IMG/VR virus record: IMGVR_UViG_3300036833_000338
Span: 1-56,783 of that record
DNA from: a virus
Lineage: Duplodnaviria; Caudoviricetes
Strand: one strand, 5' to 3'
DNA: 56,783 nucleotides
Part shown: positions 21,796 through 47,824 of the stretch, piece by piece
Layout of the letters: every line of letters begins with the position of its first letter
Position numbering within the stretch: the first letter of the stretch is position 1
The notes under the pieces: generated by a model
Told to the model about the DNA's origin: nothing
The model's input: only the letters and a program-made list of their open reading frames with translations
Database searches by the model: none
Position numbers and translations under genes: made by a program

Positions 21796-21880
21796 GTGGC
21801 GCGGCTAGGTGTTGCAACACTGAACCCTTTTCCTTGCCGAGAAGATCGCCGCGTCACTTCTCGGCAGGAGGCATGGCAAG
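21796..21880 (+). ncRNA. Three-way-junction structured leader, family 2 copy F
   Basis: Outer stem GTGGCGCGGC/GCCGCGTCAC, two inner hairpins; loop CTTGCC complementary to GGCAGG and GGCAAG before ATG 21881. Confidence 0.55.
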
Positions 21881-22633
21881 ATGCCCGGAAATCCCGAATT
21901 ACCGATCATCACGCAAGCTGAAGCAAAAGCGTGCGGACTCAAGCGCTTTTTCATTGGATTGCCCTGCAGGAATGGGCATGTCGCAGAACACTATAGCAGT
22001 CATGGCGGCTGCGTTGCTTGTGTTGCCCTACGTAATATTGCCAATAAAGAGAGTAAATTATGTTGGCAACGTGAACATCCAAAGGAAATGGCTGCAAGTC
22101 GCCTTTTGTGGCTAATAAACAATCGAGAGAAAGACGCCGCGAGTAGAGCTCTCTATGAAAGAAATAATCGTCCTACAAGAAAAATTACTCGGACCAAAAC
22201 CCCTGAGAAATTTTCCGTATATGATGCCCGTTACCGCTCCACCCATCCAGAACGAGTGAAGGCAAGTAGCACTCGTTATCGAGCAGCCCATCCTGAAACA
22301 GATCGCGCTCACAAGTTCGCACGGCGGGCCGCTGAAGCTAATCCGTCATGGGCTGATCAAAAGGCAATCGCAGCCATGTTTGCCAGTCGTCCGCTTGGGT
22401 ACCACGTTGATCATATTATTCCGCTCGGCAGCGCAAAGCGCCCCGCCAAAACGGCAGAAGGATATCCGATTAGAGGCTTAAATGTGCCGTGGAATTTGAC
22501 GCATTCACGCGCAACAATAAATCTCGGCAAACAGCATCGAATGACCATGGAAGAGCAATTCTTGTGCGAATTGCCATTTACATTACTTCCAGAAGAGCCT
22601 CTTCCAGCCGCGCCCATTCCTTATCTGCAATAG
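21881..22633 (+). CDS. Free-standing HNH endonuclease, antisense to the head operon
   Basis: PSWADQKAI...YHVDHIIPL...GLNVPWNL...NLGK; N-terminal AKACGLKRFFIGLPCRNGH. Confidence 0.88.
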   Translation: MPGNPELPIITQAEAKACGLKRFFIGLPCRNGHVAEHYSSHGGCVACVALRNIANKESKLCWQREHPKEMAASRLLWLINNREKDAASRALYERNNRPTRKITRTKTPEKFSVYDARYRSTHPERVKASSTRYRAAHPETDRAHKFARRAAEANPSWADQKAIAAMFASRPLGYHVDHIIPLGSAKRPAKTAEGYPIRGLNVPWNLTHSRATINLGKQHRMTMEEQFLCELPFTLLPEEPLPAAPIPYLQ

Positions 22634-23555
22634 ATGAGTCCGCAACCATTACGTCAGGCCCTGCGCGACCTTCCCGCACGAGACTCAAGTGATTACAGCG
22701 AATATTTCTCATGACGCCATCAAATTTATGACCCTCGTATACTCCAGGAGTCATATCTGCATCATAGGAATATCCGGCAGATATTTGCTTCTTGTCTCCG
22801 TCTTCAACCGCTTGCGACGCGTATTCCGGCCATATCGAGATATCATTCTTGATATAGGGATGTTCGTATCGAGCCTTGGTTCCCGCGGCACCAACTGTGA
22901 TCTCGGCCGGATGATCTTGTGCTGATGCGGGTTTATGCTCCCAAAGTAGCGGCTGACCATTGAAGCTATTGACAGTTTCCGGCTTAGCAAGTTCTTTAGG
23001 GTGCCTAAGTAGCATATAGGTCTTATCTGGATCTAACCCTAGTTCTTCTGCTTGCGGTATTTCGTCGCCGCGATATGGATTCACAATACCTTTCGTCAGA
23101 TTACAATCACTAACATGCAAACGACCGTCCTTGTCATATGTCCGTTTGCCGCCAGCTTGGTCGAGCGCCAGCGCCATGTCGTTGGCGGCGCGGAGCTCGC
23201 GGGTCAGCGCCGGCTTCAGCGGGTTGGCGGCGTCCTCGCGATCGGTGCCCTCAGGGGCCTCCGCAGGGGGCGCTGGCGGGGCGTGCTCCGCTTCCTGGCC
23301 CTCTTCACCGGCCCAGGCGAGAAGGCCCCTCAGGAACGTCCGCAGGCTGTCGAGAAACGTGCCGGTGGTCTGGTCGCCGTGCCCCTCGCCGATCGACTCG
23401 ACGAATTCTTTCCCGACGCTCTGCGGGATGCCCAGGGTCGACTTCCCGGACGCGGCGGCGTGCATGGCGCGGCGTTGGGATTCCGAAACGGGGGGGTCGG
23501 TGGCGAGGTCATCGCCGACGCCTGAGATCGGTCCTCCCACATCGGGCATGGCCAA
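22578..23555 (-). CDS. Prohead protease-like protein (DUF2213)
   Basis: RTYDKDGRLHV...VNPYRGDEIP...ISAGYSYDADMTPG...DGVMRNIRCNHLSLVREGRAGPDV. Confidence 0.88.
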   Translation of the reverse strand: MAMPDVGGPISGVGDDLATDPPVSESQRRAMHAAASGKSTLGIPQSVGKEFVESIGEGHGDQTTGTFLDSLRTFLRGLLAWAGEEGQEAEHAPPAPPAEAPEGTDREDAANPLKPALTRELRAANDMALALDQAGGKRTYDKDGRLHVSDCNLTKGIVNPYRGDEIPQAEELGLDPDKTYMLLRHPKELAKPETVNSFNGQPLLWEHKPASAQDHPAEITVGAAGTKARYEHPYIKNDISIWPEYASQAVEDGDKKQISAGYSYDADMTPGVYEGHKFDGVMRNIRCNHLSLVREGRAGPDVMVADSSIADKEWARLEEALLEVM

Positions 23556-23561
23556 ATCTCC

Positions 23562-23804
23562 TTAGCGTATTGGCAGCGGCAGCGGCACGAGGCAGGCGAG
23601 CAGGCCGAAGATCACAACAATGACGGCGATGACGATCGCTGCCCATATCACGATCCGCACGATCTGGATGGCGGCGTTCAGTGCCCACGCCAGTTCGGCC
23701 GGCGGCGTCGCCAATGCCAGCAGCACGCGAATGATCGCCAGCATCGCCAGCACCACGACGATCCAGATCAGCAAGTGCTCGATGGTCCCCAAGCCAAAGC
23801 ACAT
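23562..23804 (-). CDS. Small two-TM membrane protein
   Basis: Two long hydrophobic segments; GAGG RBS. Confidence 0.65.
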   Translation of the reverse strand: MCFGLGTIEHLLIWIVVVLAMLAIIRVLLALATPPAELAWALNAAIQIVRIVIWAAIVIAVIVVIFGLLACLVPLPLPIR

Positions 23805-23819
23805 GCCAGTTCCCTCGCT

Positions 23820-23990
23820 CTACCGATGCGGTCCGGCGCGTTTCGTGTTGACCGCTTCGGCCGTCAAGCCTTCAGGGCCGGCGGTGATCTGGCGGGTGGT
23901 GTCGATCCCGTGTTTCGACACGCCATGGCCATACGAGGCGACCACAAAAGTGACCAAGCCGACAAAGACGACAACGAACCTGCCCAGCAT
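23820..23990 (-). CDS. Small membrane-anchored protein (56 aa)
   Basis: MLGRFVVVFVGLVTFVVASYGHG...; TAATG coupling with the upstream gene; read by hand. Confidence 0.45.
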   Translation of the reverse strand: MLGRFVVVFVGLVTFVVASYGHGVSKHGIDTTRQITAGPEGLTAEAVNTKRAGPHR

Positions 23991-24205
23991 TACGGAACCG
24001 TGATCTGCGTCCAGTTCGGAGACGCCGACGTCCCGGTGTTCTGATAGAGTGTCGCGGGCGGCCCGGCGGTGATGTTGGTCAAGAGATCACCGGGCTGGGC
24101 GAGGTTGGCGAGCGTGCCCGAGGTGCCGCTGACCGGCACTCCCGAATGTGCATAGTTGGGCACCAGTACCATGTCGCCGGCGGCTGTCGCGACCGTGATC
24201 GCCAT
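23990..24205 (-). CDS. Small protein, possibly virion-associated
   Basis: 71 aa; AGGAG RBS; LYQNTGTSASPNW. Confidence 0.6.
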   Translation of the reverse strand: MAITVATAAGDMVLVPNYAHSGVPVSGTSGTLANLAQPGDLLTNITAGPPATLYQNTGTSASPNWTQITVP

Positions 24206-24215
24206 ATTGCGTCTC

Positions 24216-24581
24216 CTACCAGCGCACGCAGGTGAACTTGTGCCCGGCGGTTACGGCATTGACCGAGACTGTCGCCGAGCTGAGCGGAACACCTGAATAG
24301 GAATTCCCTGCTGCAATGCTGCTATTGGTGTTGTTGCCTGCCACCGTCGCGGTATTGACCGGATCGACAAACAGCGCTTCGGCGGTGGCAATCCCCTGAT
24401 CGGCGGCAGTCGTCGGGTTGACGATGTAAAAGCCGTTTACCGGACCGGTCAACGCCACCACCGCTGTCCCGCCGGTGACGACTGTGGTCGTGGTGCAGGC
24501 GCGCGGGGTGACGTTCTGGGCGTATGCGGGCCAGGCGACGACCACCAGGGCCGCGAACAAGAAGCGCAGGGATCGCGGCAT
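24216..24581 (-). CDS. Beta-rich protein with signal-peptide-like N-terminus
   Basis: MPRSLRFLFAALVVVAWPAYAQ followed by a T/V/A-rich domain. Confidence 0.6.
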   Translation of the reverse strand: MPRSLRFLFAALVVVAWPAYAQNVTPRACTTTTVVTGGTAVVALTGPVNGFYIVNPTTAADQGIATAEALFVDPVNTATVAGNNTNSSIAAGNSYSGVPLSSATVSVNAVTAGHKFTCVRW

Positions 24582-24635
24582 TTCGGCCCCTTTTCTGCTA
24601 GGTAGCTCAGCCGGTATCTTATTGCCGCGCTTCGA

Positions 24636-25568
24636 TTACTCGAATGCAGTACCTGTTGTATACCCTTGAGCGCGCAATGCAGCAAGATATTCTGGATTAC
24701 GGCGTAACCGCCCTTCGGCCGGAGTTTCACCAGCGAGCACGACTTCCGACCAACACCGGCAGTTTGGCCCGCCGCCTGGGTGATAACGCATTTCCCGCTG
24801 GCCTGGCTCACTAGCAATCGGCGGCTCTGACCAGCGATGGAAGGTTCCTTCCAGCTGCTTATGGCGAGGTCGCACGTCGCGGTCGAGTGACGATCGCCAA
24901 ATATATCCTTCCGATCCGAGATTTATCGACCGCTGCTCCAGGATTGCCCCCGCGGTGCGGCTGACCTCGGTGCGTCCGATTAAATTGGCCCGCGACTTGG
25001 TGACTTCGCCGGTCGCGAAGATCTCTCGACTAACTTCTTCCCAGCGTTTGCCGCCAGTGATCGCCTCCACTCCGAGCTGATGGACCCGCTCGGAAGCTTC
25101 CCTGGGGAGCGATTGAATCAGCCGCACCTGTTCTTCGAGCAGCCGGTCGAGCATCGGCTTGATGTCCACATCCGCGATCTCGCGGCGCAGTCCCCGGTAT
25201 ATTTCTCGTCCTAATTTATGCCAGCCGACGGCATCGCGGCGGGCGATCTCGCTCAAGATTCTCTCGGCCGTGACCGCAGCCCATGGCTCGAGGATGTCGG
25301 CATACTGGCCGAGCATGTCCTCGAGGGTGCGCAGCAGCTCGGGGGTCCATATCCCGTCGCTCGGGGCCATGCCGCGGACGAGGTCGCCGATGTGCCGGGC
25401 GATCTTGCGCAGGTTTCGGGCGTACTCACTCTCGGCCCGCCGGGCGCGCATCGCGTGGGCGCGGGCGCTCTCGGCCCCGCGGTGCTGGCCGCGGGCGATG
25501 GGGAAACGCCGCGACGGAAAGAACGGGCTCCAGTCGCGGTAGTAGCCTTCCGGGTCTTGCGACTGCAT
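24636..25568 (-). CDS. MuF / SPP1 gp7-like head morphogenesis protein
   Basis: RANLIGRTEVSR...YIWRSSLDRDVRPRH...HPGGGPNCRC. Confidence 0.9.
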   Translation of the reverse strand: MQSQDPEGYYRDWSPFFPSRRFPIARGQHRGAESARAHAMRARRAESEYARNLRKIARHIGDLVRGMAPSDGIWTPELLRTLEDMLGQYADILEPWAAVTAERILSEIARRDAVGWHKLGREIYRGLRREIADVDIKPMLDRLLEEQVRLIQSLPREASERVHQLGVEAITGGKRWEEVSREIFATGEVTKSRANLIGRTEVSRTAGAILEQRSINLGSEGYIWRSSLDRDVRPRHKQLEGTFHRWSEPPIASEPGQREMRYHPGGGPNCRCWSEVVLAGETPAEGRLRRNPEYLAALRAQGYTTGTAFE

Positions 25569-25604
25569 TACGGCGGCGGCCGCCGAGGCCGTGCCATCGG
25601 CCCT

Positions 25605-25778
25605 TTATGGAGCAGGCTTCGGGCTCTCCGGCAGCAACCCCTCGCGCTGCATCCGCGCCTTCACCTTCTCGGCGAAGGCGCGAGCCTGTTCAGGCGTCAT
25701 CACGCCCTCGGACGGGTCATCCGGGTCATCGATCCACGGGGCCCACTGCCCTGGCGATGGCTTCTCCTGGGATTCCAT
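25605..25778 (-). CDS. Hypothetical small protein
   Basis: MESQEKPSP... with GAGG RBS, overlapping the portal 3' end. Confidence 0.45.
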   Translation of the reverse strand: MESQEKPSPGQWAPWIDDPDDPSEGVMTPEQARAFAEKVKARMQREGLLPESPKPAP

Positions 25779-28700
25779 TTTTCCTCGCCTCTGCTTGTAG
25801 GGCAGTGGAATAATCGACGTTGGTGCCTTCGGTATCCCGGCCACCCAGTTTCGCATACAGCTCCTTCTCAGGATACCACCAGATCGCCTGCAGATCGGCA
25901 TTGCTGAGATGCGTGCCCTCGGCGGACAGCATTTGCCTGGCATGATCGACGACATCCCGCATCCAAATCCGGTCGCCGCCCGATTTTGGCGTCTCATTGA
26001 TGCCGTCCATGGCGTGGATCATCCGCTCGGCCGACAGTGTCAATTCGGACTTGAGGCGGGTCTTTGCGCGGTATTCAGCGGCATGAGCGGCGTAATCGCG
26101 TTCATGCAAGGCAACGATCGCGTCGGCCTGCGACTTTAGCTCCTCCAGGGTTGGCGGCACCGGCCCGCCGCCTGCGGCGAGGGCTCGCTCAAATCTGCCT
26201 TGGGTCTTGGCAAAGGACGCGGGATCGAGCTGTCCCTTCAGGGAGCCGGCGAGCCGTCCCCAGGCCCGCATGAACCACAGGTCCATCGTGACCGGGTTAT
26301 AATTGCCATTGAGGTTCTGGAAGAATCCACCGCCGATTTTTGGTCCGAAGATCGCCGAGCCGTAAACCGGCGTGTCGACGTTCTCGCCCTGGATCGGATG
26401 ACCATCCGCAGTCAGCTCGCCCGCCGTCCGCTCGGTATTCAGGAATTGCCGCGTTCCTTCCGGCCCCAGTGTATCCAGCAAATTGTTGTACTTTCCGAAA
26501 TTGGAGTTCATCGCGATCTTTTCTTGGGCTTCTATGTTCGTCGGAAACCGGCCGGTCTGCTTGAAGGTTCGGTACGCCTGATCGGCCAATCGCACATTCG
26601 ACGGTACCTTCTCGCCTTGGCTGGTGATCGCCAGTGCGGCGGTATACGCAGTGCGCGCGTGCGGATCGGTGGTCAATTCCGGATGCATCAAGGCAGCGAC
26701 ATCCATCGCCTCCTTGACCTTGCTGGTGTACCAATTGCCCGCGTGACCGGAGCGCGCCGCAGCGTCTTTGATCTCACTGGCAATGACGCGCGACAACAGA
26801 TGATCGGTTCGCGGAGACGGCCCTTGGATGCGACCGCCAGGGACGCCGAGGTTTCTGAGTGCGGCTGAGCCGCGCGCCATCAATTGGTCCGCGATGTCGA
26901 CCACCGTGCGCGAGCGTGGTCTTGCAGCAGGCGTATCACCGTAGAGGATGTCCCGCACCGAGAGCGCGCGTTCGCGCGGGTCGGCGCCGATCGGCGGCTC
27001 TACGCCGGTTTGCGTCCAGGTTGCTTCGCGCCAATGATCGTCAGCGTCTCGCCAGACCTCTCGGAGGTTTCGTCCACCCACCGCTCCGGAATCTTCCGTT
27101 TCGCGGATGACGGCTTCGTAGGCGCGCTGGGCGTCGGCGCGCTGCTCTTCGTCGGTTCCGGTGTCGAGCTTTGTGCCAATGAACTCTCCGTTGCCATGGG
27201 TGACCTTGATCGGCACGTCAGCCGCGACCCGCTCGATCGCCGCGTCGGTTTCGGGATCGCTCGAGTAAATATGAACCTTGGCGCCGCCGGGTGTCGGTTC
27301 CAATGTGTGAAAGGCCAGGCCGCCTTGCAATAGCTGATCGTGGATCTGCGACAGATCGCCCGGCAGCTCAAAGCTCACCATGCTCTCGGGCCCCTTGGGG
27401 TCCGGGTTGAACACCAGCACCGCCTTCTGGTTGGAGACGGCGCCCTTCATCGCGGCTGCCGCGCGGACCATCGCCGGATCGCCGCGCAGCGCGACCATCA
27501 ACGAATTCTCGGCACCGTCCGACCAGGCGCCGATGACGTCGGCTCGATGCGTCTCGCGCAGCCCGAGACCATCGTCGATGATGCGGCTGACCTGGCCCAA
27601 AGCCTTTTGGCGGACGCCACCCAGCTCGGCCTGCGCTTGGGGGAAGGTCAGGTCACGAATATTCGGGGAAGCAAAGGTTTCGGCCGTTCGAACTCTCGGC
27701 GCGGCGCGTTTAACAGGTTCCGCCGCGGCAGGCTCAGGCTTGGCAGGAGTCTCCTTCTTCTCGGGCTCGGAGGGCTCCTCGGCCTCCGGCTCTTCCTTCT
27801 CCGCAGGCTCTTCCTTCTTGGCGCCGGCCTCGCCTTCACCCTTCCGCGCGAATTGCCCGTGCTTGCGGGTGACGTTCTCTTCCTTAAACTCGGCATCCTC
27901 GGCGAACCAATCGGCCAGCCACTTCGCGTCACCGGTCAGTGGGGCTTTTTTTTTTGCTTCCGCTTCCGGGTCGTAGTTGGCGATCGCCTCGGCCAGATCT
28001 TCGAGGAACGCCTGCAGCCGCGCGATATCGTCCGGTGTCAGGTCATCGTTATCCGGCGCCGCGTCACCACCGCCTGCCGCTGCCCTGGCCATTCCGATGC
28101 CGAGTTTGGCGCCATGTTCGATGATGACGTGCTGGACGATTTCCTGCGCGAGCATCACGGCCGCATGCGCCACCGTCCCGGTCGGATCACCGGTCAGCAG
28201 CATCGACCCGCCCGACATCGCCATGCGCAGGCCGAAGGAGCGCAGACCTTTCATCTGCTCCGGGGTCGGCCGGTTGCCGGTCGCCATCGCCTTGAGCCCA
28301 CCGGCCGCATGCATCGCGTGCGTCTTCTCTTCGTGCCAGATGTGTTTCGGCAGATCCTTGGCCATGCCGGCGATCCTGCTCGCCCAGCTCTTGCGGGCCT
28401 CGCCGCCCGGTTTCAGCGCTTCGTGGATGGCCTGAGCCTCGGGCCGCCCGACCTCGCCGATGCGATGGACCACCGCCGCGGCGGCCCGCGCCCCAACGCC
28501 GGGCGTCGCGCTCGGTATATGCTGGTGAACGCCGCCCCCGCCACCGCCCGAGGTAAACCGGCCGTGCGCCTCGCGGCGGTGCTTCGACTCTTCCCATTCG
28601 GCCTGGTCGAAAGGCGCCCGGCTACGATCGCGCTCAGCCTGCAGCCCGTAGATGTACTGAATGATGTTGGACGGTGCGCCACGGGCGATCTCGAGCAAGT

Positions 28701-31137: not shown

Positions 31138-31141
31138 GAGA

Positions 31142-33620: not shown

Positions 33621-33668
33621 TTTGAAATTTTCCGTTCAGTTTGAATTTAAAAGAAATCAAACATTAAA

Positions 33669-34172: not shown

Positions 34173-34222
34173 TTGCGGGCACCCATAAAGTGTCACTTGT
34201 CACTTTATAAATGCCCATCTCA

Positions 34223-35151: not shown

Positions 35152-35165
35152 AGGAGACGAACCCA

Positions 35166-37127: not shown

Positions 37128-37130
37128 CCG

Positions 37131-37694: not shown

Positions 37695-37727
37695 CCCGGT
37701 GACAAAAAGGGAACCTCAAATACGTTA

Positions 37728-37979: not shown

Positions 37980-38017
37980 GCATCCGCGGAGGCAAAACGC
38001 ACATCCTGAATATCGTA

Positions 38018-39557: not shown

Positions 39558-39745
39558 GGCCCTGAATAATCGCGCCCGGTGGCGGCCAGCCGCTGGAGAT
39601 GGCCGCGGTCGCCGATCCGCTGCTCGCGCTCGTCGGCCTCCTCGGCCACCCGCTGAAGGCTCACGCAACGCCGGCACAGCACGTTGGTTTTTTGCCGCGG
39701 AAACTCGTAGCACTCCGCGCACAGCTCGAGGGATTCGGTCCTCAC
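39554..39745 (-). CDS. Small Cys-containing protein
   Basis: CAEC...CRRC; coupled to the next gene. Confidence 0.5.
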   Translation of the reverse strand: MRTESLELCAECYEFPRQKTNVLCRRCVSLQRVAEEADEREQRIGDRGHLQRLAATGRDYSGP

Positions 39746-39859
39746 GCGGTGCCCGCGGTCATCAGCTGGACGAGCTTGCCAGCGACGAGCTCGCGGAAGG
39801 CCTCCTCGTCGAGCATCGGACGCCAGAGCGCGGTCATCGGCTGACGATTTCCTGGTCGG

Positions 39860-40144
39860 TCATTTCAGCTCCTCGAGGTCTTCGCGATGGGTCCAGCGCA
39901 CCAGCCGCACCCGGTGCCCGCTCGCCCGTTGATGCTTGAGGGCGACCTCGCGCAGCGGGCCCTCGGCGATCGCGCGCGAGCGGGTGACCAGATTGACCGG
40001 GCCGAGCCTCGGCATGGCCGGCACCAACGCCAGGATCGTGCCTTCGCCGCCATCCGGGTCGACCTCGGTCCAAGTGTAGATCTCGGTCAAGTCCTTCCCG
40101 GGTTCGCGGTTGTCGCGTGCTCCTGAGCGTTTGTCGAAGGGCAT
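39860..40144 (-). CDS. Hypothetical protein
   Basis: IYTWTEVDPDGGEG...VRLVRWTHREDLEE; GAGG RBS. Confidence 0.55.
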   Translation of the reverse strand: MPFDKRSGARDNREPGKDLTEIYTWTEVDPDGGEGTILALVPAMPRLGPVNLVTRSRAIAEGPLREVALKHQRASGHRVRLVRWTHREDLEELK

Positions 40145-40226
40145 CAGTGCCTCGCCTCGATCAGCAGGTCCATCATGCGACCGTGCGCGAAAGGCTCGCG
40201 CGAGCTCGACCAGTGTGCGACGGCGC

Positions 40227-41996
40227 TCATGCCGCACCCATGATGCGCTCGAGGATCCAGCGTATGACCGGCACCGCCATCGAATTGCCGAGCGCCCGGT
40301 AGCGCGGCCCGTCCGCCGCCGGCTTGCCGCGATACGAGATCGCGGTCCAGCCCGGCGGAAATCCCTGGAGTTTTTCGCATTCGACCGGCGTCAGCCGCCG
40401 CACCGCCATCTGCTGTACATAGCTGCGGCTCGATCCGCCGCTCGCGGACCGGATGTTCGCGATCTCGTCCAACTCAGGCATGGAACCGCCTTCACGGCCC
40501 CGCAGATTGAAGGCAACCGCCGTCGCCCGGTTCGCCGTCAGGGTCGGCCGATCGCCTTTGATGGCTTGGTTGGAATAATTCGATTGGAAGGCGATGGCCT
40601 GGGTGTGGCCATCGGTGTCGAGCACGTTGGCCTGGTCGCCGTAGATGCACACATCGGATTGGCGGGCGTCGAAGGCGATGGCGTGCTGATCGCGGCCTGT
40701 CAGGGTGAATTGTGGATCGCCAACTTCTCCTATTCCAAGGCCGTTCTGCTTCTTGTTGCGATCCAGGGTTCCTTGAATGGGGATAATCGCCACCAGCGGC
40801 GTGCCGCGCCCGGTGCCGTCTTCGCTGGCGTCGAAGCCCTCGGCGCGAAGGGCGTGGGTGACGATCATCTCCGACCCGTTCCCGGCGTTGCCGTTGCCGC
40901 CGACCGCCGCCTGCAGGGTCGGCGCGAGGTCGCCCGAACGCCCGCAGGCGATGAAGGTCTCAGTCTCGAAATCCTGTCGCCCGTGCGGCCCGCCGTGGGC
41001 ATTGACCGCCTCGATCGGCCCGGACTGGCGGTTGCCGCCGTAGGCGACGGCGTTATTCGCGCGAGCCCGTAGCGAGGGCTGACATCCCTCGACGATGTTG
41101 AGGCCCGAGCGCTCGGCCGCATTTCCCGCCGCACCTTCGCCGCTGCGGTCCAACGCATCGCTGCCGATGCCGTAGCCGTGAGCGCCGACGCTGAGGGTCG
41201 GGGCAACCTGCGCGATCAGTCCGCCGTCGCACTCGAAGTCGGTGCCGAGCCCGCCGCCTGCCGTAGCGCGGCTGCTAAGGCTGGGGGCAACATCGGCAAT
41301 GCCGTGATGCTTGCCACTCTGCAGCGTGAACATCGGGTCGCCAAGCTCGCCGATGCCTATTCCGGCGCGCGGATCGTCGGTCGAGACGCCTGTTCGAGCA
41401 CCGACTTCAAGGATCGGGGCAACTCCTTCCCCCGCTTTTCTGCCCGGCGCAGGATTCCCGTGCAGGCTTTCGGGCTCAAAAAGTACCGCTGCGGCAGGTC
41501 GCCAGTCTCCAAGATGGCCGACAACGAACAGGCGACGCCGTCGCTGGGGTACTCCGAAATATTGAGCGTCAAGCGTCCGGTAGGCCCACCCGTACCCGCA
41601 TTGCTCCACTGCCCCGAGAAAGGTGCCAAAGTCCCGTCCCTCGTCGGAAGACAGGAGGCCGGGCACGTTCTCGAAAAGAAACCAACGGGGGCGCAGGCGC
41701 TCAACCAGACGAAGGGCGACGAGGGCCAGGTTGCCGCGCGGGTCGTCCAGCCCGAGGCGCTTCCCGGCGACCGAAAAGGACTGGCAGGGCGATCCGAAGA
41801 CGACGACGTCCACAGGCTCAACTGCGTCGGCATCGATCCGCTCCACGTCGCCGAGGTTGGGGATGCCGGGGAAACGGGCGCGGTGCACAGCACTGGCGAA
41901 CGGGTCGATCTCCGCGCACCACCGCCAGTCGATTGCCGCACATGCCGCCTCCGGCGCCCCGATCCCTGAAAAAAGAGTACCCCCGGAAAGTCTCAT
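40227..41996 (-). CDS. C5 cytosine DNA methyltransferase (alpha chain) with long variable region
   Basis: LFSGIG (I), GSPCQSFS (IV), ENVPG (VI), QRRRRLF (VIII), RRLTPVECEKLQGFP, RYRALGNS (X). Confidence 0.93.
   Translation of the reverse strand: MRLSGGTLFSGIGAPEAACAAIDWRWCAEIDPFASAVHRARFPGIPNLGDVERIDADAVEPVDVVVFGSPCQSFSVAGKRLGLDDPRGNLALVALRLVERLRPRWFLFENVPGLLSSDEGRDFGTFLGAVEQCGYGWAYRTLDAQYFGVPQRRRRLFVVGHLGDWRPAAAVLFEPESLHGNPAPGRKAGEGVAPILEVGARTGVSTDDPRAGIGIGELGDPMFTLQSGKHHGIADVAPSLSSRATAGGGLGTDFECDGGLIAQVAPTLSVGAHGYGIGSDALDRSGEGAAGNAAERSGLNIVEGCQPSLRARANNAVAYGGNRQSGPIEAVNAHGGPHGRQDFETETFIACGRSGDLAPTLQAAVGGNGNAGNGSEMIVTHALRAEGFDASEDGTGRGTPLVAIIPIQGTLDRNKKQNGLGIGEVGDPQFTLTGRDQHAIAFDARQSDVCIYGDQANVLDTDGHTQAIAFQSNYSNQAIKGDRPTLTANRATAVAFNLRGREGGSMPELDEIANIRSASGGSSRSYVQQMAVRRLTPVECEKLQGFPPGWTAISYRGKPAADGPRYRALGNSMAVPVIRWILERIMGAA
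41357..41833 (-). CDS. Alternative-frame ORF inside the MTase, resembling an M.EcoHK31I-type beta polypeptide
   Basis: CSLSAILETGDLPQRYFLSPKACTGILRRAEKRGKELP; ORF open to 41941. Confidence 0.7.
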   Translation of the reverse strand: MPTQLSLWTSSSSDRPASPFRSPGSASGWTTRAATWPSSPFVWLSACAPVGFFSRTCPASCLPTRDGTLAPFSGQWSNAGTGGPTGRLTLNISEYPSDGVACSLSAILETGDLPQRYFLSPKACTGILRRAEKRGKELPRSLKSVLEQASRPTIRAPE

Positions 41997-42102
41997 GATC
42001 GTTTGATTCCGATCCAGGCTTCGTGTACATCGGACTCGAGCGGCGGCGGCGGCGCGGTCAGCCGGAAGGGCGGCGTTCGGCTCGACCAGTGTGCGGCGGC
42101 GC

Positions 42103-42327
42103 TCATGCCTTCCTTGCACGCTTGCGAAAATCATAGATCGCGCTATCCAGCGCGCGCCACGCGTCGCCAACCGCATCCTGGTCGTGAGCGCCGGCTTGCT
42201 CAGCCTGCATGACATCCTGAAAGTGCTCAGCAGCTTTAGCGAGGTATTCCCCGAATTCGATCGCAAAATCCTTATCGGTTCGGCCGAGATGCTCGGTCGT
42301 TGATTCAGGTAGCTTCTGCACGCTCAC
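42103..42327 (-). CDS. Hypothetical protein
   Basis: RTDKDFAIEFGEYLA...AIYDFRKRA; coupled to the upstream gene. Confidence 0.6.
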   Translation of the reverse strand: MSVQKLPESTTEHLGRTDKDFAIEFGEYLAKAAEHFQDVMQAEQAGAHDQDAVGDAWRALDSAIYDFRKRARKA

Positions 42328-42791
42328 GCGGTCCCCGCGGGCTCGCTGCCGAGATGCGCCCTGGCCTCGGCAAAGGCGTCGTCGACGGTCTTGCGCTTAC
42401 GGACCCGCAGCGGCGGATGCACCGGCTGCTCGGCGAACGGGCGCGGCTTGCGGGTCCGCGGCTTGGGCGGCGGATGCACGACGTCGGCGGCAGTCTGCCC
42501 GGTGCGCTGCATGGCGGCCTCGCCGAGCGGAGTATCGGCATAGAGCCCTAGGGCCCGGCGGTATTCGTCGCGCAGGTCGTACTGCCCCTGTCGCACCACC
42601 GGGTCGAGTGCCTTCTCCTTGACCATCTGACGCACGGTCTCGGCATCCATGCCAACCTCGCGAACCTCGTCATAGATTTCCCGCAGCGATGCGTTGATCC
42701 CCGCGCGCTCCTCGACCAGGATCTCGATCCGGTCGAGGAAACGGGCCAACATGTCGCTGTCGACGCTGGATTTTGCTTTTGCCATTCCCAA
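42324..42791 (-). CDS. gapR: GapR-like (DUF2312) DNA-binding protein
   Basis: LARFLDRIEILVEERAGINASLREIYDEV...GMDAETVRQMV...YRRALG. Confidence 0.75.
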   Translation of the reverse strand: MGMAKAKSSVDSDMLARFLDRIEILVEERAGINASLREIYDEVREVGMDAETVRQMVKEKALDPVVRQGQYDLRDEYRRALGLYADTPLGEAAMQRTGQTAADVVHPPPKPRTRKPRPFAEQPVHPPLRVRKRKTVDDAFAEARAHLGSEPAGTA

Positions 42792-42900
42792 CCCCTCCTA
42801 TGGTCGTCCCTGTCGTTGCCGAGCTTCCGGCGGATGCGCCATTCTTGAAATTTCATCCACGCGCAGCGGCTTGCGTGAATTCATGATCTTTTTCTCCCTT

Positions 42901-43221
42901 TCACCCTTTTCCAATGGTCCACGGCGAGGGCGGCGGATGCGCCATCTCGAATAATGCCCTCAATGCCGCCTTGATCTTGGGATCGGCCAGCGCCAGCACT
43001 CGATCCTCGCCTTCCAGCCGCACCAGTGCCAGCGCCTCGCCCTCGTATTGCAGCAGCTCGCGGCAATACCCGCAGATGGCGATATCGCCCGGCTTGGGAA
43101 TGGCACCGTCGAGCTCGACTGAGGTGGCGCCGTCGTTGAGCGAGCCACATGAGGGACAGCGGGCCGGCGGCAGCTCGACGTGCAGGCTCTCGGGCTTGGG
43201 CTTGCCCCACGGGGTTTTCAT
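42901..43221 (-). CDS. Zn-finger hypothetical protein
   Basis: CPSCG...PKPGDIAICGYC. Confidence 0.6.
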   Translation of the reverse strand: MKTPWGKPKPESLHVELPPARCPSCGSLNDGATSVELDGAIPKPGDIAICGYCRELLQYEGEALALVRLEGEDRVLALADPKIKAALRALFEMAHPPPSPWTIGKG

Positions 43222-43508
43222 AGCGGGTCCAATCCGTGCTCCTCGGCTTGGCGCAGCCATCTGGTGATCACCGCGCGGGTGGTCAGCCCGTCGACGGCTT
43301 CGCGCATTCGAAGGAGCCATAAGTGTTCCTCGGCGCCCGCGTGTGGATTGCGGTCCCACACCGGCGCCATGATCCATTGCCGCAGGTAGGCGCGCAACGC
43401 GGCGATGTGCTCGGCGCTGAGCTCGTGGCCTTCGAGGTAGGCAACGACGGCGGGCTGCAGCACACCCGAGGTTTCGTATTGCCAGTATCCCGGCCCCTCA
43501 TCATCCAT
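43218..43508 (-). CDS. Hypothetical protein
   Basis: PGYWQYETSGVL...LRAYLRQWI; overlaps neighbours in the operon. Confidence 0.6.
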   Translation of the reverse strand: MDDEGPGYWQYETSGVLQPAVVAYLEGHELSAEHIAALRAYLRQWIMAPVWDRNPHAGAEEHLWLLRMREAVDGLTTRAVITRWLRQAEEHGLDPL

Positions 43509-43749
43509 CACGGCACGTCCCAATGATCATGGCATTGACCGCGGTCAGCGTGCGCACCGCCGCGCAGTGCAGCGCGAGCAGCTCGGCGCGCAGCGTGCGG
43601 GTGGCGTCGACATCGCCAGGCACTTGGTGCCCAGCCAGCCACAGACCCAAGAGATCGGCCAGCACCGCACCCTGCACCTCGGGCTCGTGTCCCGCCAGCA
43701 GCGGTTTGATCCGCTCGGCTACCAGTGTGACCTGCTCGATGTCAGTCAT
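43501..43749 (-). CDS. Hypothetical protein
   Basis: IKPLLAGHEPEVQGAVLADLLGLWLAGH. Confidence 0.55.
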   Translation of the reverse strand: MTDIEQVTLVAERIKPLLAGHEPEVQGAVLADLLGLWLAGHQVPGDVDATRTLRAELLALHCAAVRTLTAVNAMIIGTCRDG

Positions 43750-44260
43750 CGGTTTCGTCTTCAGATGGCGGCGTGGGCACTCCGCCGTGGCTGACCAAAT
43801 GCTCATAAGCATTACGATAACGCCAAGTCGGATTTAATACTAGCAGCGGGCGGATCACTTGTCGCCATTCAAAATCCCATTCTCGGAATGCGCGCTCGGC
43901 GGCGGCAATATTCTGTTCCTTCTGTAACGTAATCTGATCACCGTCGAGAAGGGTCAATTCGGCACGTTCAAGATAGAGCGTGCCAGCTTTGTGACTGACG
44001 GTGAACAATTCGGTGAGGACAAACTGGCCAGTCGACACTTCGAGCCCTTGCTTGACCGCGCGCTTGTCGCTCATCGCGTTGACTTCGATGAAGTTCCGAT
44101 GGATGTCGTCGAAATTTTCCATCGCCAACGTCTTGGTCGCCTTACGCACAGCCTCAGCGATTTCGGCCTTGTCGGTTAGTCCACCGGCTTTAACCTTTGC
44201 GACCTTTTGGCGGCATACGGTGATTAGTTTGATCAACCGCTGTGTCGTGCTTTGCACCAA
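43742..44260 (-). CDS. Hypothetical protein
   Basis: 172 aa; GGAGG RBS. Confidence 0.55.
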   Translation of the reverse strand: MVQSTTQRLIKLITVCRQKVAKVKAGGLTDKAEIAEAVRKATKTLAMENFDDIHRNFIEVNAMSDKRAVKQGLEVSTGQFVLTELFTVSHKAGTLYLERAELTLLDGDQITLQKEQNIAAAERAFREWDFEWRQVIRPLLVLNPTWRYRNAYEHLVSHGGVPTPPSEDETDD

Positions 44261-45152
44261 TCCCCTCCCTTTCGAGAGCGACGACCAAATCGGCGAGCCA
44301 TTCGACTACGATCTTCGCATTGGTTTTCAACTCTGCCAACTTGGCGGTAGCGAGTTCGGGATGGCGATGGATGGTCGTCGCCAACTCACGTTCGATATCA
44401 ATCAGCTGCCGCGGCGTAATCGCTAATTCTTCGACTAAAGCTTTGAGCGCTCGCCCCACACACATCGCTTGGAATGATGTATTACTATCAAACGTCGGCG
44501 GAAGCGGTGTGGGCTTGCCGGGCTTGGTCTGCAGAGTCTTAACGTTGGCAATCGCTCGATCGCGCTCTTTAGCGATCTGCTGCTGCTGTGTTTCCAGCCG
44601 CTCAATGCGCTTCTGATATTTCGAAGTGATCTTGTCGAACTCATCGGCCAATTCGTCTTCACTGTAGATCAGCTTACCGGCTAGAGCAGTTGTCGTCGCT
44701 TCGACCTTGGCGGCCTCGACCAGCCGCTCGACCTCGGCGCGTGAGATGCCTTCGGGCCGTGCCGCCTTTTCGAGTACCTCGGTACGGACTTCAGCCGAAG
44801 TCGAACGTCCGGCGATCAGGTACAACGAAGAAGCTTCGATGGTCAGCTTATCGATCTGCTCTGGTGCATAATGTGCACTAGAGAGCATTTCATAGACCGC
44901 GACAAACTTGTCACCTGATCGTTTGGACCACAGCAACCGATCGGTCACGAAGTCGACGAACCCCTGATATCCGACCCGTGCTTTGACCTCGACGAGCTTC
45001 TGGCCGATTGCCAGGATGCCGGCGACAACCAGCTTGCCGCAGCCGCGAATCTGACCCTCGGCTTGTGCCAGGAACTCTTCCTCGATCGGCACCATCTCGG
45101 CCGCGGCGACGAGCCCGATTACGGCAGACTCGCGCAGGTCGTCCTCAGTCAC
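44190..45152 (-). CDS. DUF3102-like protein
   Basis: ILAIGQKLVEVKARVGYQGFVDFV...WSKRSGDKF; coiled-coil C-terminus. Confidence 0.6.
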   Translation of the reverse strand: MTEDDLRESAVIGLVAAAEMVPIEEEFLAQAEGQIRGCGKLVVAGILAIGQKLVEVKARVGYQGFVDFVTDRLLWSKRSGDKFVAVYEMLSSAHYAPEQIDKLTIEASSLYLIAGRSTSAEVRTEVLEKAARPEGISRAEVERLVEAAKVEATTTALAGKLIYSEDELADEFDKITSKYQKRIERLETQQQQIAKERDRAIANVKTLQTKPGKPTPLPPTFDSNTSFQAMCVGRALKALVEELAITPRQLIDIERELATTIHRHPELATAKLAELKTNAKIVVEWLADLVVALEREGIGAKHDTAVDQTNHRMPPKGRKG

Positions 45153-45345
45153 TTGGCGGCCCCGCCAGCCCGCAATAGCCGAGATCGTCGCCGTACCACC
45201 GCCAGGCCATACAACCCGAGGCGAGGCAGCGGCAGGCGTGATCCGGCCCGCCTTCGATGTCGCGATTGGCGCCCCGCAGCGAGCGGGCGAACGGGCACCA
45301 GCGGTTTTTTGCGTCGGCTTCAGTCATCATGGCACCACCTCCCAT
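45145..45345 (-). CDS. Small Cys-rich phage protein
   Basis: TEADAKNRWCPFAR...CLASGCMAWRW...GYCGLAG. Confidence 0.65.
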   Translation of the reverse strand: MGGGAMMTEADAKNRWCPFARSLRGANRDIEGGPDHACRCLASGCMAWRWYGDDLGYCGLAGPPSD

Positions 45346-45442
45346 GGTGTTCCCTGCGGCGGATCGGTGCGCGCGGCAACCCGTGCAGGGAGGACGGGGA
45401 TGCGGGGATCAGCCGTGCCGCGCCACGCCAGCATGCCATCGG

Positions 45443-45805
45443 TCAGCAGGCGGCGCAAGCCGCGCATTCGCACCAGCCGACGCTGCCCGGACGGCGCACC
45501 GAGGTGTAGTGCCCGGGGGCGAGCCGCGGCGGGATCGGCGGCAGATGCCCGATGTCGAGCTCGACCGCCGGGCACCGCGCGGCGCGCTCGGCCAGCGCCC
45601 GCCAGCTGTGCAGCAGGTCATCGCGGAGCGGCGGCGGGATCTTCGGAGCGTACATTCTGCTAAACCACAAATGCCGGCCAGATTGGCTGACCGGCACCGT
45701 GACGGAGAATGTGATGCGTACACATCGCAAGCTCCGGCTTCGGATTATCGTGATCTGGCGCGTGAGCGTCAAGATCATGATCCGCCGATAGCCGGGGGAG
45801 GTCAA
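45443..45805 (-). CDS. Hypothetical protein
   Basis: Co-oriented ORF; start uncertain. Confidence 0.35.
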   Translation of the reverse strand: MTSPGYRRIMILTLTRQITIIRSRSLRCVRITFSVTVPVSQSGRHLWFSRMYAPKIPPPLRDDLLHSWRALAERAARCPAVELDIGHLPPIPPRLAPGHYTSVRRPGSVGWCECAACAAC

Positions 45806-45920
45806 TCGGCAACGGTTGGCCTCTCCCGTCGCTCAGCGCCCGCAGGTTGTGCAGCCGACGTCCGACACAAGGCGATCGATTTTTCGCTATGGACGGCGTG
45901 TTCGCCAGCCCGGTCTTGGT

Positions 45921-45956
45921 CTAGGGATTCCCCCCCCTATAGGGGGGGAACCCTAG
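45921..45956. repeat. Near-perfect palindrome, candidate replication origin element
   Basis: CTAGGG-A-TT-C8-TATA-G7-AA-CCCTAG downstream of the helicase gene. Confidence 0.6.
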
Positions 45957-46188
45957 CCCGGGGAAGCAACGTCCGTCGCGCGCAGTTTTGCTGGGGATAA
46001 TTCGAATAACCCTGTTTTATATCGGGTTTCTCCAAAACCCGATCCAAGCTCCGGGCACACCTCTCCCGTTTACTGAATCAGGTCCGTCAATTTACGCAAC
46101 GACAACGCGTTTCTGCCTCGAGCCAAACGCCCATGGGGGCGTGGCTCCCGAGGGGACCGACTGTAGCGCCAGTCCCAGCAGGCCTCGC

Positions 46189-47448
46189 CTAGCGGTACAG
46201 CGAACCGAGCATCTCTCGAGCTTTTGTCTCGTTGAGGGTGACGCCTGGACAGATCTTGTGTCCGCGTTTCTCAGACAGGTATTCGCTTTCGACTAGGACG
46301 CCGTTGTCGATCCAGGCTTTTAGGATGCGTTTGGCCTGGCCTTTGGACTTGTCGGCGAGCTTACAGATGGGCCATCCGGCCCAGTCGCCGGCTGCGCGGG
46401 AGTCGCTGAGATAGGGGTCACCTGTCTCGAGCCCATTTCGCAGCACCTCGAAGATTTGGGCGATTTGTGTTTTCGGGAAGTCCTCCTTGTCAAAGACATC
46501 GGGTGGGTACCAGCGCTCGACGGTCTGCACGACGTCCCCTCTGGGATATCGCGGATTGACTGCGGTATTGCCGAGCGGCACGCCGATCAGCTTGAACCAC
46601 ATTGCGGTCGGGTCGAGCGGGGCAAGGTTGATCTTGGCGTCGTCGACGCGCACCAGGTGGGTGCGGTCTTTGTCGGAGACGCCAAAGATCTCGGCCTCGG
46701 CTTGGGTCATTGTAGTGACCGTCCGTATCAGCCGACCGGCATCGACCACTGCCGAGGCTCCGCGCCCGCGATCGGCGTCGCCTGCAGTTCCGATACCCTT
46801 GCGGGTATGGTGGACAATGTCGGGTGCGAAGTGCCACTCTGCTGCCAGCTGGATGAATAGACTGATGACTTCATCCATGGCACTGTTGTCGTTTTCGGTG
46901 AGGCTGTGCGCCTTGACAAACGGGTCCAGTCCAATGATGTCGACTGGCAATTCTAGTTGCTCATAGAGCGACCCAACGGCCCGTTGGCCAAAGCGATCGG
47001 CGACCATGAGCTTGAGGCCGCGCGGCGTGCAGTAGAGCAGCTGGCCGTCGACCTCGGTCGGGTCGATGTTGTGGTGCAGCATCGCCGCACCGATTCGCCG
47101 TTGGATCTCGGCGAGCCCATCCTCGAGGCAGACCATGGCGACGCGTCCCTGGAAGTGGACGTGCTCGCCGGTGAGCGGGCGGCCGGTGGCGACGGCGAGG
47201 TATTGCAGGCAGCGGATGGCCGACTTGCCGGCACCGCCGGCGCCGATCAGGCCGGAGAGGAAGCCCCTGGCGAAGGTGCTGCCCAAAATCCATTCGCGCG
47301 GCGGCAGGTGCTCGGCGATGATGTTGCCGGCGTTGTACCACTTGATCTGGGGCGGCGGGTCGGCCTGATCGGCCGGGTCGATGCGGAGTGGCGTGAGGCC
47401 GTTTGGCTTGCCGTTGCCGGTGTGCGGCGCGTGCCCGTTGCTACGCAC
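46189..47448 (-). CDS. RecA-fold RepA-like (AAA_25) replicative helicase
   Basis: Walker A GAGGAGKS, CLED, IGLDPF, ENDN, VHHTRK, RGASAVVDAGR. Confidence 0.85.
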   Translation of the reverse strand: MRSNGHAPHTGNGKPNGLTPLRIDPADQADPPPQIKWYNAGNIIAEHLPPREWILGSTFARGFLSGLIGAGGAGKSAIRCLQYLAVATGRPLTGEHVHFQGRVAMVCLEDGLAEIQRRIGAAMLHHNIDPTEVDGQLLYCTPRGLKLMVADRFGQRAVGSLYEQLELPVDIIGLDPFVKAHSLTENDNSAMDEVISLFIQLAAEWHFAPDIVHHTRKGIGTAGDADRGRGASAVVDAGRLIRTVTTMTQAEAEIFGVSDKDRTHLVRVDDAKINLAPLDPTAMWFKLIGVPLGNTAVNPRYPRGDVVQTVERWYPPDVFDKEDFPKTQIAQIFEVLRNGLETGDPYLSDSRAAGDWAGWPICKLADKSKGQAKRILKAWIDNGVLVESEYLSEKRGHKICPGVTLNETKAREMLGSLYR

Positions 47449-47727
47449 GGCTGACGCCCTAGCGAAGCGTCACAAAACAACCGCTTGACGAGTGCTGGCG
47501 AATTACAACATAGAGAGACTGCATATCACTTTCTCCCCGAGAGTGGTGTGAAACGCATCTCGGTTCCCCCCGAGATCCTGGAAAGTGCGAGCGCCGGCAG
47601 CCCCCGCTGCCGGCGTTCTTTCATTCTGGCGCGGAAGCGCGGGGGCGTCCAGCGGGTCGTGCGGCGCGGCGGAAAGGCTGCGGGTGCGGCTGGCTTGCAT
47701 CTCGCTGCGCTCTGGTGATAAGTGAAA

Positions 47728-47824
47728 TGACGCGGCGCGGGCGACGGCCCGACCCTCCGATACCCCTGATTCGGACTCGCCGCGTCACTTCCTAACGAAA
47801 ACAGGGGCGAAGGTCAGGGGAATA
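47728..47824 (+). ncRNA. Three-way-junction structured leader, family 2 copy G
   Basis: Outer stem TGACGCGGCG/CGCCGCGTCA, two inner hairpins; loop CCCCTG complementary to two CAGGGG sites before ATG 47825. Confidence 0.6.

Follow-up and report, generated by a model that had tools for sequence, protein, structure and literature searches.

In the phages P1 and P7, the antisense RNA C4 is encoded in one operon with its target, its loop partly occludes the ribosome-binding site, and a change of a few loop bases alters its specificity (excerpts of PMC5320573 and PMC8198154). For its two different sites C4 has separate regions, a' and b', and RNase P excises the RNA, C4-type RNAs being described as substrates of this enzyme (excerpts of PMC5320573). 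The CI RNA of P4 has one loop with two complementary targets within its own transcript, one upstream and one downstream, and the outcome stated in the relevant excerpt of PMC4825925 is transcription termination. Another structured RNA, the orphan motif int-alpA, is entered in Rfam as RF02996 and classed there as "Gene; sRNA". It is reportedly one of 224 motifs in one motif survey. The main text of PMC5737381 does not mention the motif, and a full-text literature search on its name brought up, in the portions of text available, no functional study, the mentions being listings of Rfam hits or wording on gene order. The first of the loop-site pairings considered below may already have been described, as a pseudoknot, in the supplement of PMC5737381. 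Among 151 sampled genomes of its phylum, 34 contained int-alpA above the RF02996 gathering cut-off of 35.8 bits, and a single genome had as many as 6 copies.

Here we analyzed the whole 56,783-nt stretch of the Caudoviricetes record IMGVR_UViG_3300036833_000338 (hereafter, the window), in which a preliminary description had reported two copies of a three-way-junction RNA and had read them as a C4/CI-like switch.

Three copies of a three-way-junction RNA in one phage

Both reported copies were found where they had been placed, on the plus strand, with three-way-junction folds. Copy 1 (21796..21857; 82.3 bits with R2, a covariance model trained on the three window copies and the relative L055) is predicted to fold into an outer stem (21796-21805 paired with 21848-21857), hairpin A (21808-21821), a linker (21822-21826) and hairpin B (21827-21844), whose loop (21833..21838) is the putative antisense element. 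Target site 1 (21861..21868) overlaps the 5' portion of the Shine-Dalgarno, and target site 2 (21874..21880), adjoining the start codon at 21881, falls within a leader hairpin loop closed by 5 bp. Copy 2 (47728..47787), recognized by its predicted fold and by covariance-model matches, comprises an outer stem (47728-47737 paired with 47778-47787), hairpin A (47738-47751) and hairpin B (47756-47775, loop 47761-47770). Loop complementarity places its site 1 at 47802..47807 and its site 2 at 47813..47820, the latter on the Shine-Dalgarno and 4 nt 5' of the start codon at 47825; all these features of copies 1 and 2 are on the plus strand. A third copy, absent from the preliminary description, was found on the minus strand (45367..45426) by its predicted fold and by the models R1 and R2 (66.4 bits with R2). 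Its hairpin B is at 45398-45380 (loop 45393-45385), its site 1 at 45351..45357 and its site 2 at 45338..45343, on the Shine-Dalgarno and in the loop of a 6-bp leader hairpin, with the start codon at 45330-45328.

The minimum-energy fold of the core was a three-way junction for both copy 1 (-26.9 kcal/mol, z -3.77) and copy 2 (-33.8 kcal/mol, z -4.38), and 0 of 200 shuffles folded as well in either case. Moreover, the whole window was searched, with filters off, with R1, a covariance model trained on copy 1 and one outside relative but not on copy 2. It recovered copy 2 (27.5 bits, E 2.6e-4) and also detected copy 3 on the minus strand (45362-45427; 24.9 bits, E 0.001). Position, fold and loop complementarity confirm that the reported elements really exist; the 3' tail that had been given as part of their common stem is not conserved among relatives.

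The gene 3' of copy 1 (21881..22633, plus strand) encodes a 250-aa endonuclease VII/HNH-like protein. Its earlier designation as an HNH gene is backed by a match to phrog_1035, annotated as endonuclease VII (E 2e-8), but not by Pfam, in which no family was matched. Copy 2 precedes a plus-strand gene for a 632-aa protein (47825..49723) in which the proposed ParB_N and DUF5131 domains were indeed found, and which heads a rightward block with an exonuclease (51214-52062) and RecT (52121-53725). Copy 3 is followed on the minus strand by a gene for a cysteine-rich protein of 61 aa (45145..45330) and then by a 320-aa gene at 44190-45152. These downstream genes have no relation to one another. A head-protease gene and a DUF2213 gene lie on either side of copy 1, a primase/helicase-type gene lies opposite copy 2, and a 70-aa ORF precedes copy 3. 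Copies 1 and 2 are at the 5' end of an operon and copy 3 is between cistrons. A promoter scan called none upstream of copy 1 or copy 2, and the junction is not followed by an intrinsic terminator. No RNA run was found to contain the sequence. The most closely related phage, with a ParB-DUF5131 protein of 77% identity, carries no copy.

Relation to int-alpA and to C4-type RNAs

The window copies matched no Rfam family at gathering score; at E <= 10, there was no Rfam match in the 251-nt stretches around copies 1 and 2 and no match to RF02996 in the whole record. Membership in the C4 family (RF01695) was thus rejected, with 0 Rfam matches at gathering score or E <= 10, and the search against the C4 models matched the positive control, P4 CI, at 74.9 bits against a cut-off of 45. 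Among eight relatives retrieved from the window copies, six exceeded the RF02996 cut-off: L370, L360, L366, L365, L174 and L055 scored 41-52 bits, and L316 and L363 scored 30-32 bits. Model R2 retrieves L174, L360, L365, L366 and L370, every one of them above this cut-off, and the column identity between copy 1 and L055 is 79%. This chain of sequence homology links the window copies to accepted int-alpA members, and judged by it the window elements are a diverged variant of int-alpA, which the earlier placement with C4 and CI only had overlooked.

The predicted folds of all three copies agree with the RF02996 consensus structure line. They have in common with int-alpA a closing stem of 8-10 bp, a two-nucleotide junction, a small first hairpin, an A-rich linker, a second hairpin with a pyrimidine-rich loop of 6-10 nt, then 2-3 nt and the closing strand, and a purine-rich site 3' of the stem complementary to the hairpin-2 loop; the RF02996 model itself reaches 14 nt beyond the stem, ending on this first site. 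The rule of two sites per loop, presented below, is true of canonical members too. However, the hairpins of the window copies are longer or otherwise unlike, and the copies precede endonuclease, ParB-DUF5131 and 61-aa genes in a phage instead of following an integrase gene. Going by the family name, int-alpA would be expected between an integrase gene and the gene that follows it in an integrative element; none of the three copies lies in such a place.

What stood of the proposed C4/CI-like switch is the layout and the two-target loop logic, but not membership in the C4 family. As in the window copies, the Rfam C4 consensus on P4 joins three helices and places the antisense sequence in the loop of the second hairpin, and P4 CI, too, is located in the leader of an operon for the replication of a mobile element. 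On the contrary, its outer stem has 17 bp versus 9-10 bp in the window copies, its hairpins are adjacent with an 8-nt strand after hairpin 2 whereas the window copies have a linker between the hairpins, and the targets of the window copies are both downstream, at the ribosome-binding site. As in C4, the transcript appears to contain sites complementary to its own loop, among them one at the ribosome-binding site, but the window RNAs use a single loop for two like sites, unlike the two regions of P1/P7 C4.

Hairpin-B loops match two sites in their own leader

We compared loops and leaders of six members, counting as a site a Watson-Crick run of at least 6. The loops of copies 1, 2 and 3 each matched two sites in their own leader and 0 sites in the five other leaders tested, and shuffled own leaders reached two sites in 94, 183 and 367 cases per 10000, respectively. 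It was therefore correct that the hairpin-B loop differs from copy to copy and that each loop has two matching downstream sites, the last at the Shine-Dalgarno or start codon. Two own-leader sites were present in 5 of the 6 members, the sixth having one 7-nt site and, at a laxer threshold, one 5-nt site. Cross-member matches occurred only among members with the same loop, with one single-site exception (the L174 apex against the leader of copy 3). With sites of at least 5 pairs, 8 of 10 members had two, and the proximal site was 0-8 nt from the start codon; L363 had 0 sites with the automatic loop and L366 had one. At this lax threshold, single-member shuffle rates were 0.7-12%, and chance matches are raised by the pyrimidine-rich composition of the loops and the purine-rich composition of the sites. 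With strict loops, two sites were reached in 30 of 598 mismatched pairs.

As most of these members had been retrieved with patterns or models derived from the window, this first set is not independent. An independent set was made of 28 RF02996 matches sampled from other genomes, 25 of which had a rule-defined hairpin B. Results showed at least two sites in 19 of these 25 int-alpA RNAs, one in 5 and none in 1, with 20 distinct loops in the set; mismatched loop-leader pairs reached two sites in 16 of 388 cases. The two sites were 11-17 nt apart in 18 of the 19 members, and the distance from the closing stem to the start of site 1 was short and nearly fixed. Loop-target complementarity is thus kept in homologs, in keeping with the earlier idea of a structured RNA family with reprogrammed loop specificity: the targets in the same transcript covary with the loop, and the proximal one is on the ribosome-binding site. 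The proximal site also falls within the loop of a leader helix of at least 4 bp in 27 of 30 members, a weak feature considering that, on average, 29% of the trials with shuffled flanks gave a helix as long as the observed one.

A proposed self-targeting riboregulator

The best explanation, to which we assign a probability of about one half, is a riboregulator that targets its own transcript, the loop blocking the ribosome-binding site in an autogenous circuit. The junction of ~60 nt would act as a conserved scaffold made of the closing stem, the small hairpin A and the short A-rich linker, on which hairpin B would display a loop of 6-10 nt that is free to vary. This loop would have two short antisense targets in the following leader, separated by 12-14 nt, the distal one a few nt past the closing stem and the proximal one on the Shine-Dalgarno or start codon, often inside the loop of a small leader hairpin. 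We infer that loop and proximal site pair in the cell, which would hide the ribosome-binding site and reduce translation of the next gene. As regulator and target are on one transcript, the circuit would be autogenous, the element regulating the mRNA that carries it. Should the stable junction outlive this mRNA or be cut from it, sister transcripts might be regulated too, as with P1 C4 and P4 CI; we propose such action in trans tentatively. A separate small RNA would need processing, considering that no intrinsic terminator follows the junction. With three copies and three loop/site pairs, the phage would possess three largely separate channels.

Occlusion does not account for site 1, as one loop cannot hold both sites simultaneously in cis. 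A switch acting only in cis, which we consider unlikely but a serious competitor, would give this site a role: sites 1 and 2 would compete for the loop in alternative pseudoknots, with no separate small RNA, and some signal (temperature, translation of the upstream gene or a protein of the element) would set the balance. As a decoy, site 1 would keep the ribosome-binding site open, so that activation would be possible besides repression. The near-fixed distance of site 1 from the closing stem and the spacing of 11-17 nt between sites agree with such a switch, as do the extension of the Rfam model 14 nt past the stem to site 1, the absence of a terminator, the lack of a conserved 3' end, and the fact that copy 3 and three relatives directly follow the upstream gene, within a longer transcript. 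Indeed, an intramolecular pseudoknot would fit the fixed short distance better than a purely trans-acting RNA. On the contrary, a plain anti-Shine-Dalgarno hairpin would suffice for control in cis, without a conserved junction, three different loops in one phage are expected if cross-talk in trans matters, and the Rfam entry type of the family is an sRNA gene.

More speculative, and in our opinion improbable in its full extent, is a general version of the self-targeting riboregulator, in which int-alpA-class RNAs are freely re-programmable and choose between a decoy pseudoknot and the ribosome-binding site, tipped by sister RNAs. If this were true, the loop would choose between the decoy site just 3' of the junction and a ribosome-binding site in a small hairpin loop, and free junction RNAs from sister or co-resident elements would tip the choice. 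Expression would then sense the copy number of the element and provide immunity against same-loop relatives, the window phage would run three such channels with different codes, and the orphan motif would gain a function. The loop/two-site rule offers a concrete and testable mechanism for the common int-alpA motif, whose diverged phage copies escape the Rfam model. As a scaffold in which 6-10 loop bases would determine the specificity, with three parallel codes within a single phage, it may be relevant to how phages and satellites restrain early, nuclease and replication genes, and could be a source of orthogonal RNA regulators.

Conservation of the junction and other explanations

In a 6-sequence alignment, 92% of cells pair (28-58% in slid controls), with compensatory changes at 5 of the 6 pairs of hairpin B and 3 of the 4 pairs of hairpin A, and the covariation score was reached by 0 of 500 shuffles. 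With 10 sequences, 159 of 170 cells pair and the outermost pair shows three pair types. One closing-stem position is G-U in 7 of the 10 members and would read A-C on the other strand, which fixes the RNA strand. All 10 members are just 5' of a gene in the same orientation, and the eleventh relative, L370, is placed likewise. The closing stem is highly diverse in sequence across canonical int-alpA RNAs; in the window subgroup, whose model finds only 2 of 30 canonical int-alpA RNAs, 7 of 9 closing-stem pairs are invariant. A different element in soil metagenomes carries the identical 12-mer inverted repeat. Copy 2 and L365 have hairpin A in common, but not the loop.

Conservation of hairpin A and the junction strands independently of the loop, as in copy 2 and L365, would also suit a protein-binding, processing or stability element in which loop-site complementarity is secondary and a nuclease or mobile-element protein recognizes the junction, protecting or marking the 5' end of the mRNA; the action of RNase P on C4-type RNAs points the same way (excerpts of PMC5320573). 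We judge this quite improbable, as it leaves unexplained both the 20 different loops with two own-leader matches and the constant placement of the proximal site on the ribosome-binding site. Processive antitermination RNAs are exemplified by put of HK022. Transcription control in cis, by an RNA of this type or by a ligand-sensing riboswitch, could be suggested by the placement of copies at the starts of three operons and by the conserved junction strands, but it is very improbable considering that variable loops with covarying targets are foreign to both classes, the leaders are without a downstream terminator, the downstream genes are mutually unrelated and Rfam riboswitch matches were 0. Finally, a DNA-level feature, the inverted repeat being an operator or recombination site with no RNA helix, would fit the invariant closing-stem pairs of the window subgroup and the recurrence of the 12-mer in soil metagenomes, but is hardly credible against the wide closing-stem covariation of the larger family, the compensatory changes in both inner hairpins, the strand fixed by G-U pairs, the variable spacing of the arms and an orientation that tracks the downstream gene in every case.

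The relatives were also seen in contexts other than those of the window copies. They occur directly 3' of an integrase gene and 5' of a DUF927 primase/helicase-type gene, L360 being one that directly follows an integrase gene, or alternatively opposite a repressor-type gene with HTH and M78-peptidase domains.

Architecture and leader targets of the window RNAs

The two three-way-junction RNAs of the preliminary description were confirmed at 21796-21857 (copy 1) and 47728-47787 (copy 2), both on the plus strand. Each isolated core gave the same fold, at -26.9 kcal/mol for copy 1 and -33.8 kcal/mol for copy 2, with z-scores of -3.77 and -4.38, respectively, and none of 200 shuffled sequences folded as well. 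As had also been proposed, the hairpin B loops, which are the antisense elements, differ between the two copies, and each has two complementary sites in its own leader. These sites lie within the 25-40 nt separating the closing stem from the start codon, and the second adjoins or covers the Shine-Dalgarno sequence or the start codon. No terminator was found within the leaders of copies 1 and 2, and a promoter scan upstream of both called none; by eye, candidate -10-like hexamers can be seen 6-9 nt 5' of the stem.

We trained a covariance model on copy 1 together with a single outside relative, leaving copy 2 out, and searched the entire window with it, filters off. Copy 2 was recovered (27.5 bits, E = 2.6e-4), and a previously unreported copy 3 came to light on the minus strand at 45362-45427 (24.9 bits, E = 0.001). 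Copy 3 shares the layout of the other two and carries a third loop sequence with two matching sites, the second being the Shine-Dalgarno of a 61-aa gene; at a lax threshold, its loop can also pair with the sites of copy 2. Copy 3 begins 16 nt past a 70-aa ORF (45654-45443, minus strand), and further upstream the same strand has promoter-like sites at 45805-45777 and 45772-45744 (10/12 matches) and, between these and the ORF, a terminator-like hairpin (45698-45670). Considering this arrangement, copy 3 is probably part of a longer transcript. A second model, also run with filters off, found no fourth copy in the window.

Relatives and conservation of the fold

We looked for relatives by exact-pattern scans and by model searches. 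As the pattern is G+C-rich, the exact-pattern scans returned mostly chance matches. In viral contigs, one of 63 stretches was accepted (L055); L035, which is intergenic, was rejected for its different interior, and L032 for lying inside a 566-codon frame. Genome contigs gave 66 stretches with 19 model matches at E <= 0.1, 14 of which were examined and one accepted (L174, from a MAG titled Alphaproteobacteria). Metagenome contigs gave at least 80 loci and at least 40 model matches at E <= 0.05; 16 among those listed were examined and two accepted (L316 and L250, the latter identical in sequence to L055). Several metagenome loci (L271, L272, L277 and similar ones) contain a different element, a 22-24-bp perfect stem including the 12-mer of the window closing stem, with a variable interior of ~30 nt, a fold z of ~-6 and matches on both strands.

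Five more relatives (L360, L363, L365, L366 and L370) came from searching samples of 151 genomes with models. Using R2, a model derived from the three window copies and L055, matches were found in 4/151 genomes of the order-level sample (two accepted, L361 rejected as inside a long frame and L362 as unclear), in 6/151 of the family-level sample (four accepted, L364 and L367 rejected as inside long frames) and in 2/151 of the class-level sample. In L365, the target site occurs a third time at ~288-340, inside the coding region and ~19 nt past the start codon.

Alignments were model-based; a MAFFT alignment of three sequences put copy 2 in the wrong place. With six sequences, 92% of cells pair versus 28-58% in slid controls, compensatory changes affect five of the six pairs of hairpin B and three of the four of hairpin A, and none of 500 shuffles reached the covariation score. 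With ten sequences, 159/170 cells pair, and seven members show G-U at a closing-stem position, where the opposite strand would not pair. All ten lie just 5' of a co-oriented gene, and an eleventh, L370, is arranged likewise. The near-invariance of the closing stem in this subgroup is partly due to ascertainment, as patterns and models derived from the window were used to assemble these sequences. Hairpin A was rejected as a second antisense loop, since it is common to members with different targets.

The window RNAs as a diverged variant of the int-alpA class

We compared the window copies with all Rfam families, and none matched at gathering score; short stretches of copies 1 and 2 gave no match at E <= 10. 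The kinship with C4-type RNAs implied by the preliminary description was thus not borne out by Rfam, while P4 CI, run as a positive control with the same tool, was recognized as C4 (RF01695) at 74.9 bits. Relatives of the window RNAs matched RF02996, the int-alpA RNA: six of eight scored 41-52 bits, above the 35.8-bit cut-off, and the remaining two fell just under it (30-32 bits). In its consensus, RF02996 contains the parts of the window copies, arranged in the same order, and it runs 14 nt beyond the closing stem to end on a purine-rich site matching the loop of its hairpin 2.

The RF02996 model did not reach the window's own copies. Their link to int-alpA runs through L055, with 41 bits against RF02996 and 79% column identity to copy 1, and through the members that a window-derived model retrieved. 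We therefore regard the window copies as diverged variants within the int-alpA class and not as accepted members. The window RNA family diverges, as a branch, from a motif that is already known but is an orphan.

One earlier study is said to have described the int-alpA motif. The motif is absent from the main text of PMC5737381, whose supplement may describe the first pairing. In the portions of the full-text literature retrieved, int-alpA appeared by name only in a listing of Rfam hits or as wording for a gene order, and among the literature matches listed, nothing relevant concerned C4-like antisense RNAs in Alphaproteobacteria.

Loop-target complementarity is kept in canonical int-alpA RNAs

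In a phylum-level sample of 151 genomes, 34 had RF02996 matches above the cut-off, and single genomes carried as many as six. From 30 fetched loci we used 28, leaving out L387, truncated at a contig end, and L398, which is the same site as L360. To count as hairpin B, a 5-bp stem had to end 0-4 nt 5' of the closing strand. This fixed rule identified a hairpin in 25 of the 28, the other three being dropped for want of a clean 5-bp hairpin, and a site was defined as at least 5 Watson-Crick pairs with the loop in the next 55 nt. Two or more sites were present in 19/25 RNAs, one site in five and none in one, whereas mismatched loop-leader pairs sharing no loop 5-mer had two sites in only 16/388 cases. 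The set comprised 20 distinct loops, and the spacing between sites was 11-17 nt in 18 of 19. These counts show that loop-target complementarity, on which the preliminary description had staked its switch, is kept in homologs. Stricter loops taken from automatic MFE folds gave two or more sites in 17/28 versus 30/598 mismatched pairs; as these folds get several hairpins wrong, the rule-based definition is preferred.

Canonical members have many different closing-stem sequences, and the window-subgroup model finds only 2 of the 30. This indicates that the stem covaries family-wide, which removes the worry that it might be a DNA operator.

We also looked at the folding of the leader around the proximal site. 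This site lies in the loop of a leader hairpin with a helix of at least 4 bp in 27/30 members and at least 5 bp in 19/30, the helix being 5 bp in copy 1 and 6 bp in copy 3. As an average of 29% of shuffles of the flanks reach the helix length observed, the tendency of the proximal site to lie in a small hairpin loop is only suggestive.

Genes served and genomic context

The genes downstream of the RNA are unrelated, encoding an endonuclease VII/HNH-like protein, ParB-DUF5131, a 61-aa cysteine-rich protein and proteins without family, and no informative family emerged among the downstream proteins of the relatives. The RNA was present at none of 100 loci encoding relatives of ParB-DUF5131 or of the endonuclease, and the closest related phage has no copy; the RNA is therefore not linked to the families of its downstream genes. 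Besides L055's own record, none of three related phage records had the RNA at a convincing score. The relatives in bacterial genomes sit in integrative elements. Two examples are L368 (genome G047) and L369 (genome G233). In one, the RNA directly follows an integrase gene and precedes a 298-aa gene and then a DUF927 primase/helicase-type gene; in the other, a gene for an HTH and M78-peptidase protein is divergent from the RNA, after which come a 274-aa gene and a DUF3631 protein.

Comparison with C4/CI RNAs and mode of action

The window RNAs are laid out like the C4/CI class: the closing stem encloses a small structural hairpin and then another hairpin, whose loop is antisense. P4 CI likewise has one loop and two targets in its own transcript, as we confirmed on the P4 sequence, but one of its targets is upstream and the other downstream, whereas both sites of the window RNAs are downstream. 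The P4 arrangement is reported to lead to transcription termination (PMC4825925). In P1, C4 RNA is processed, and its loops bind both the ribosome-binding site and a site upstream (PMC5320573, PMC8198154). For the window RNAs, considering that both sites are downstream, that the proximal one coincides with the ribosome-binding site and that the leader has no terminator, the most direct reading of the sequence would be occlusion of the ribosome-binding site by the loop. The preliminary C4/CI-like label, set aside above as family membership, keeps its value as an analogy that probably describes how the element works.

The junction may act solely in cis, on its own mRNA, as suggested by its fixed short distance to site 1 and by the presence of some copies within longer transcripts. 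It may also act in trans, considering that the junction is conserved and stable, that one phage carries three different codes and that Rfam labels the family as sRNA.

In P4 (L358), the leader upstream of CI (8615-8692, minus strand) is an Rfam isrK match at 60.8 bits and contains the upstream target. The P4 order of promoter, two hairpins with a terminator and junction RNA resembles the order upstream of copy 2, where the stretch 47510-47632 (plus strand) folds strongly (z = -5.6) into two hairpins with C-rich loops of 5-6 nt, and a terminator-like hairpin lies at 47589-47618. The second of these loops is complementary to the G-run in copy 2's proximal site, which raises the possibility that two RNAs address this ribosome-binding site.

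Other features of the window

The window is a linear IMG/VR virus record of 56.8 kb, estimated to be 82% complete, and the sequencing runs listed with it are from soil DNA only, with no RNA runs. Structural genes on the minus strand (among them tape measure, head protease, DUF2213 and terminase) occupy about the first 33 kb and are followed by replication and recombination genes, which encode a methyltransferase, a primase/helicase-type AAA protein, ParB-DUF5131, an exonuclease and RecT; ARAGORN found no tRNA-like genes. Positions 45921-45956, flanked by the primase/helicase-type gene and by the leftward promoter-like sites, form a nearly perfect 36-nt palindrome that contains long runs of C and of G.

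Two endonuclease VII/HNH-like paralogues (2608-3327 and 21881-22633, both on the plus strand; 76% identity over 93 nt) lie on the other strand from the structural genes around them, in the manner of free-standing homing endonucleases. One of them has copy 1 and the other a different conserved leader, present in three copies on the plus strand (2520-2615, 15371-15520 and 55635-55795) and laid out as a ~13-bp hairpin, a conserved -35-box-like hexamer, a Shine-Dalgarno and a conserved ORF start.
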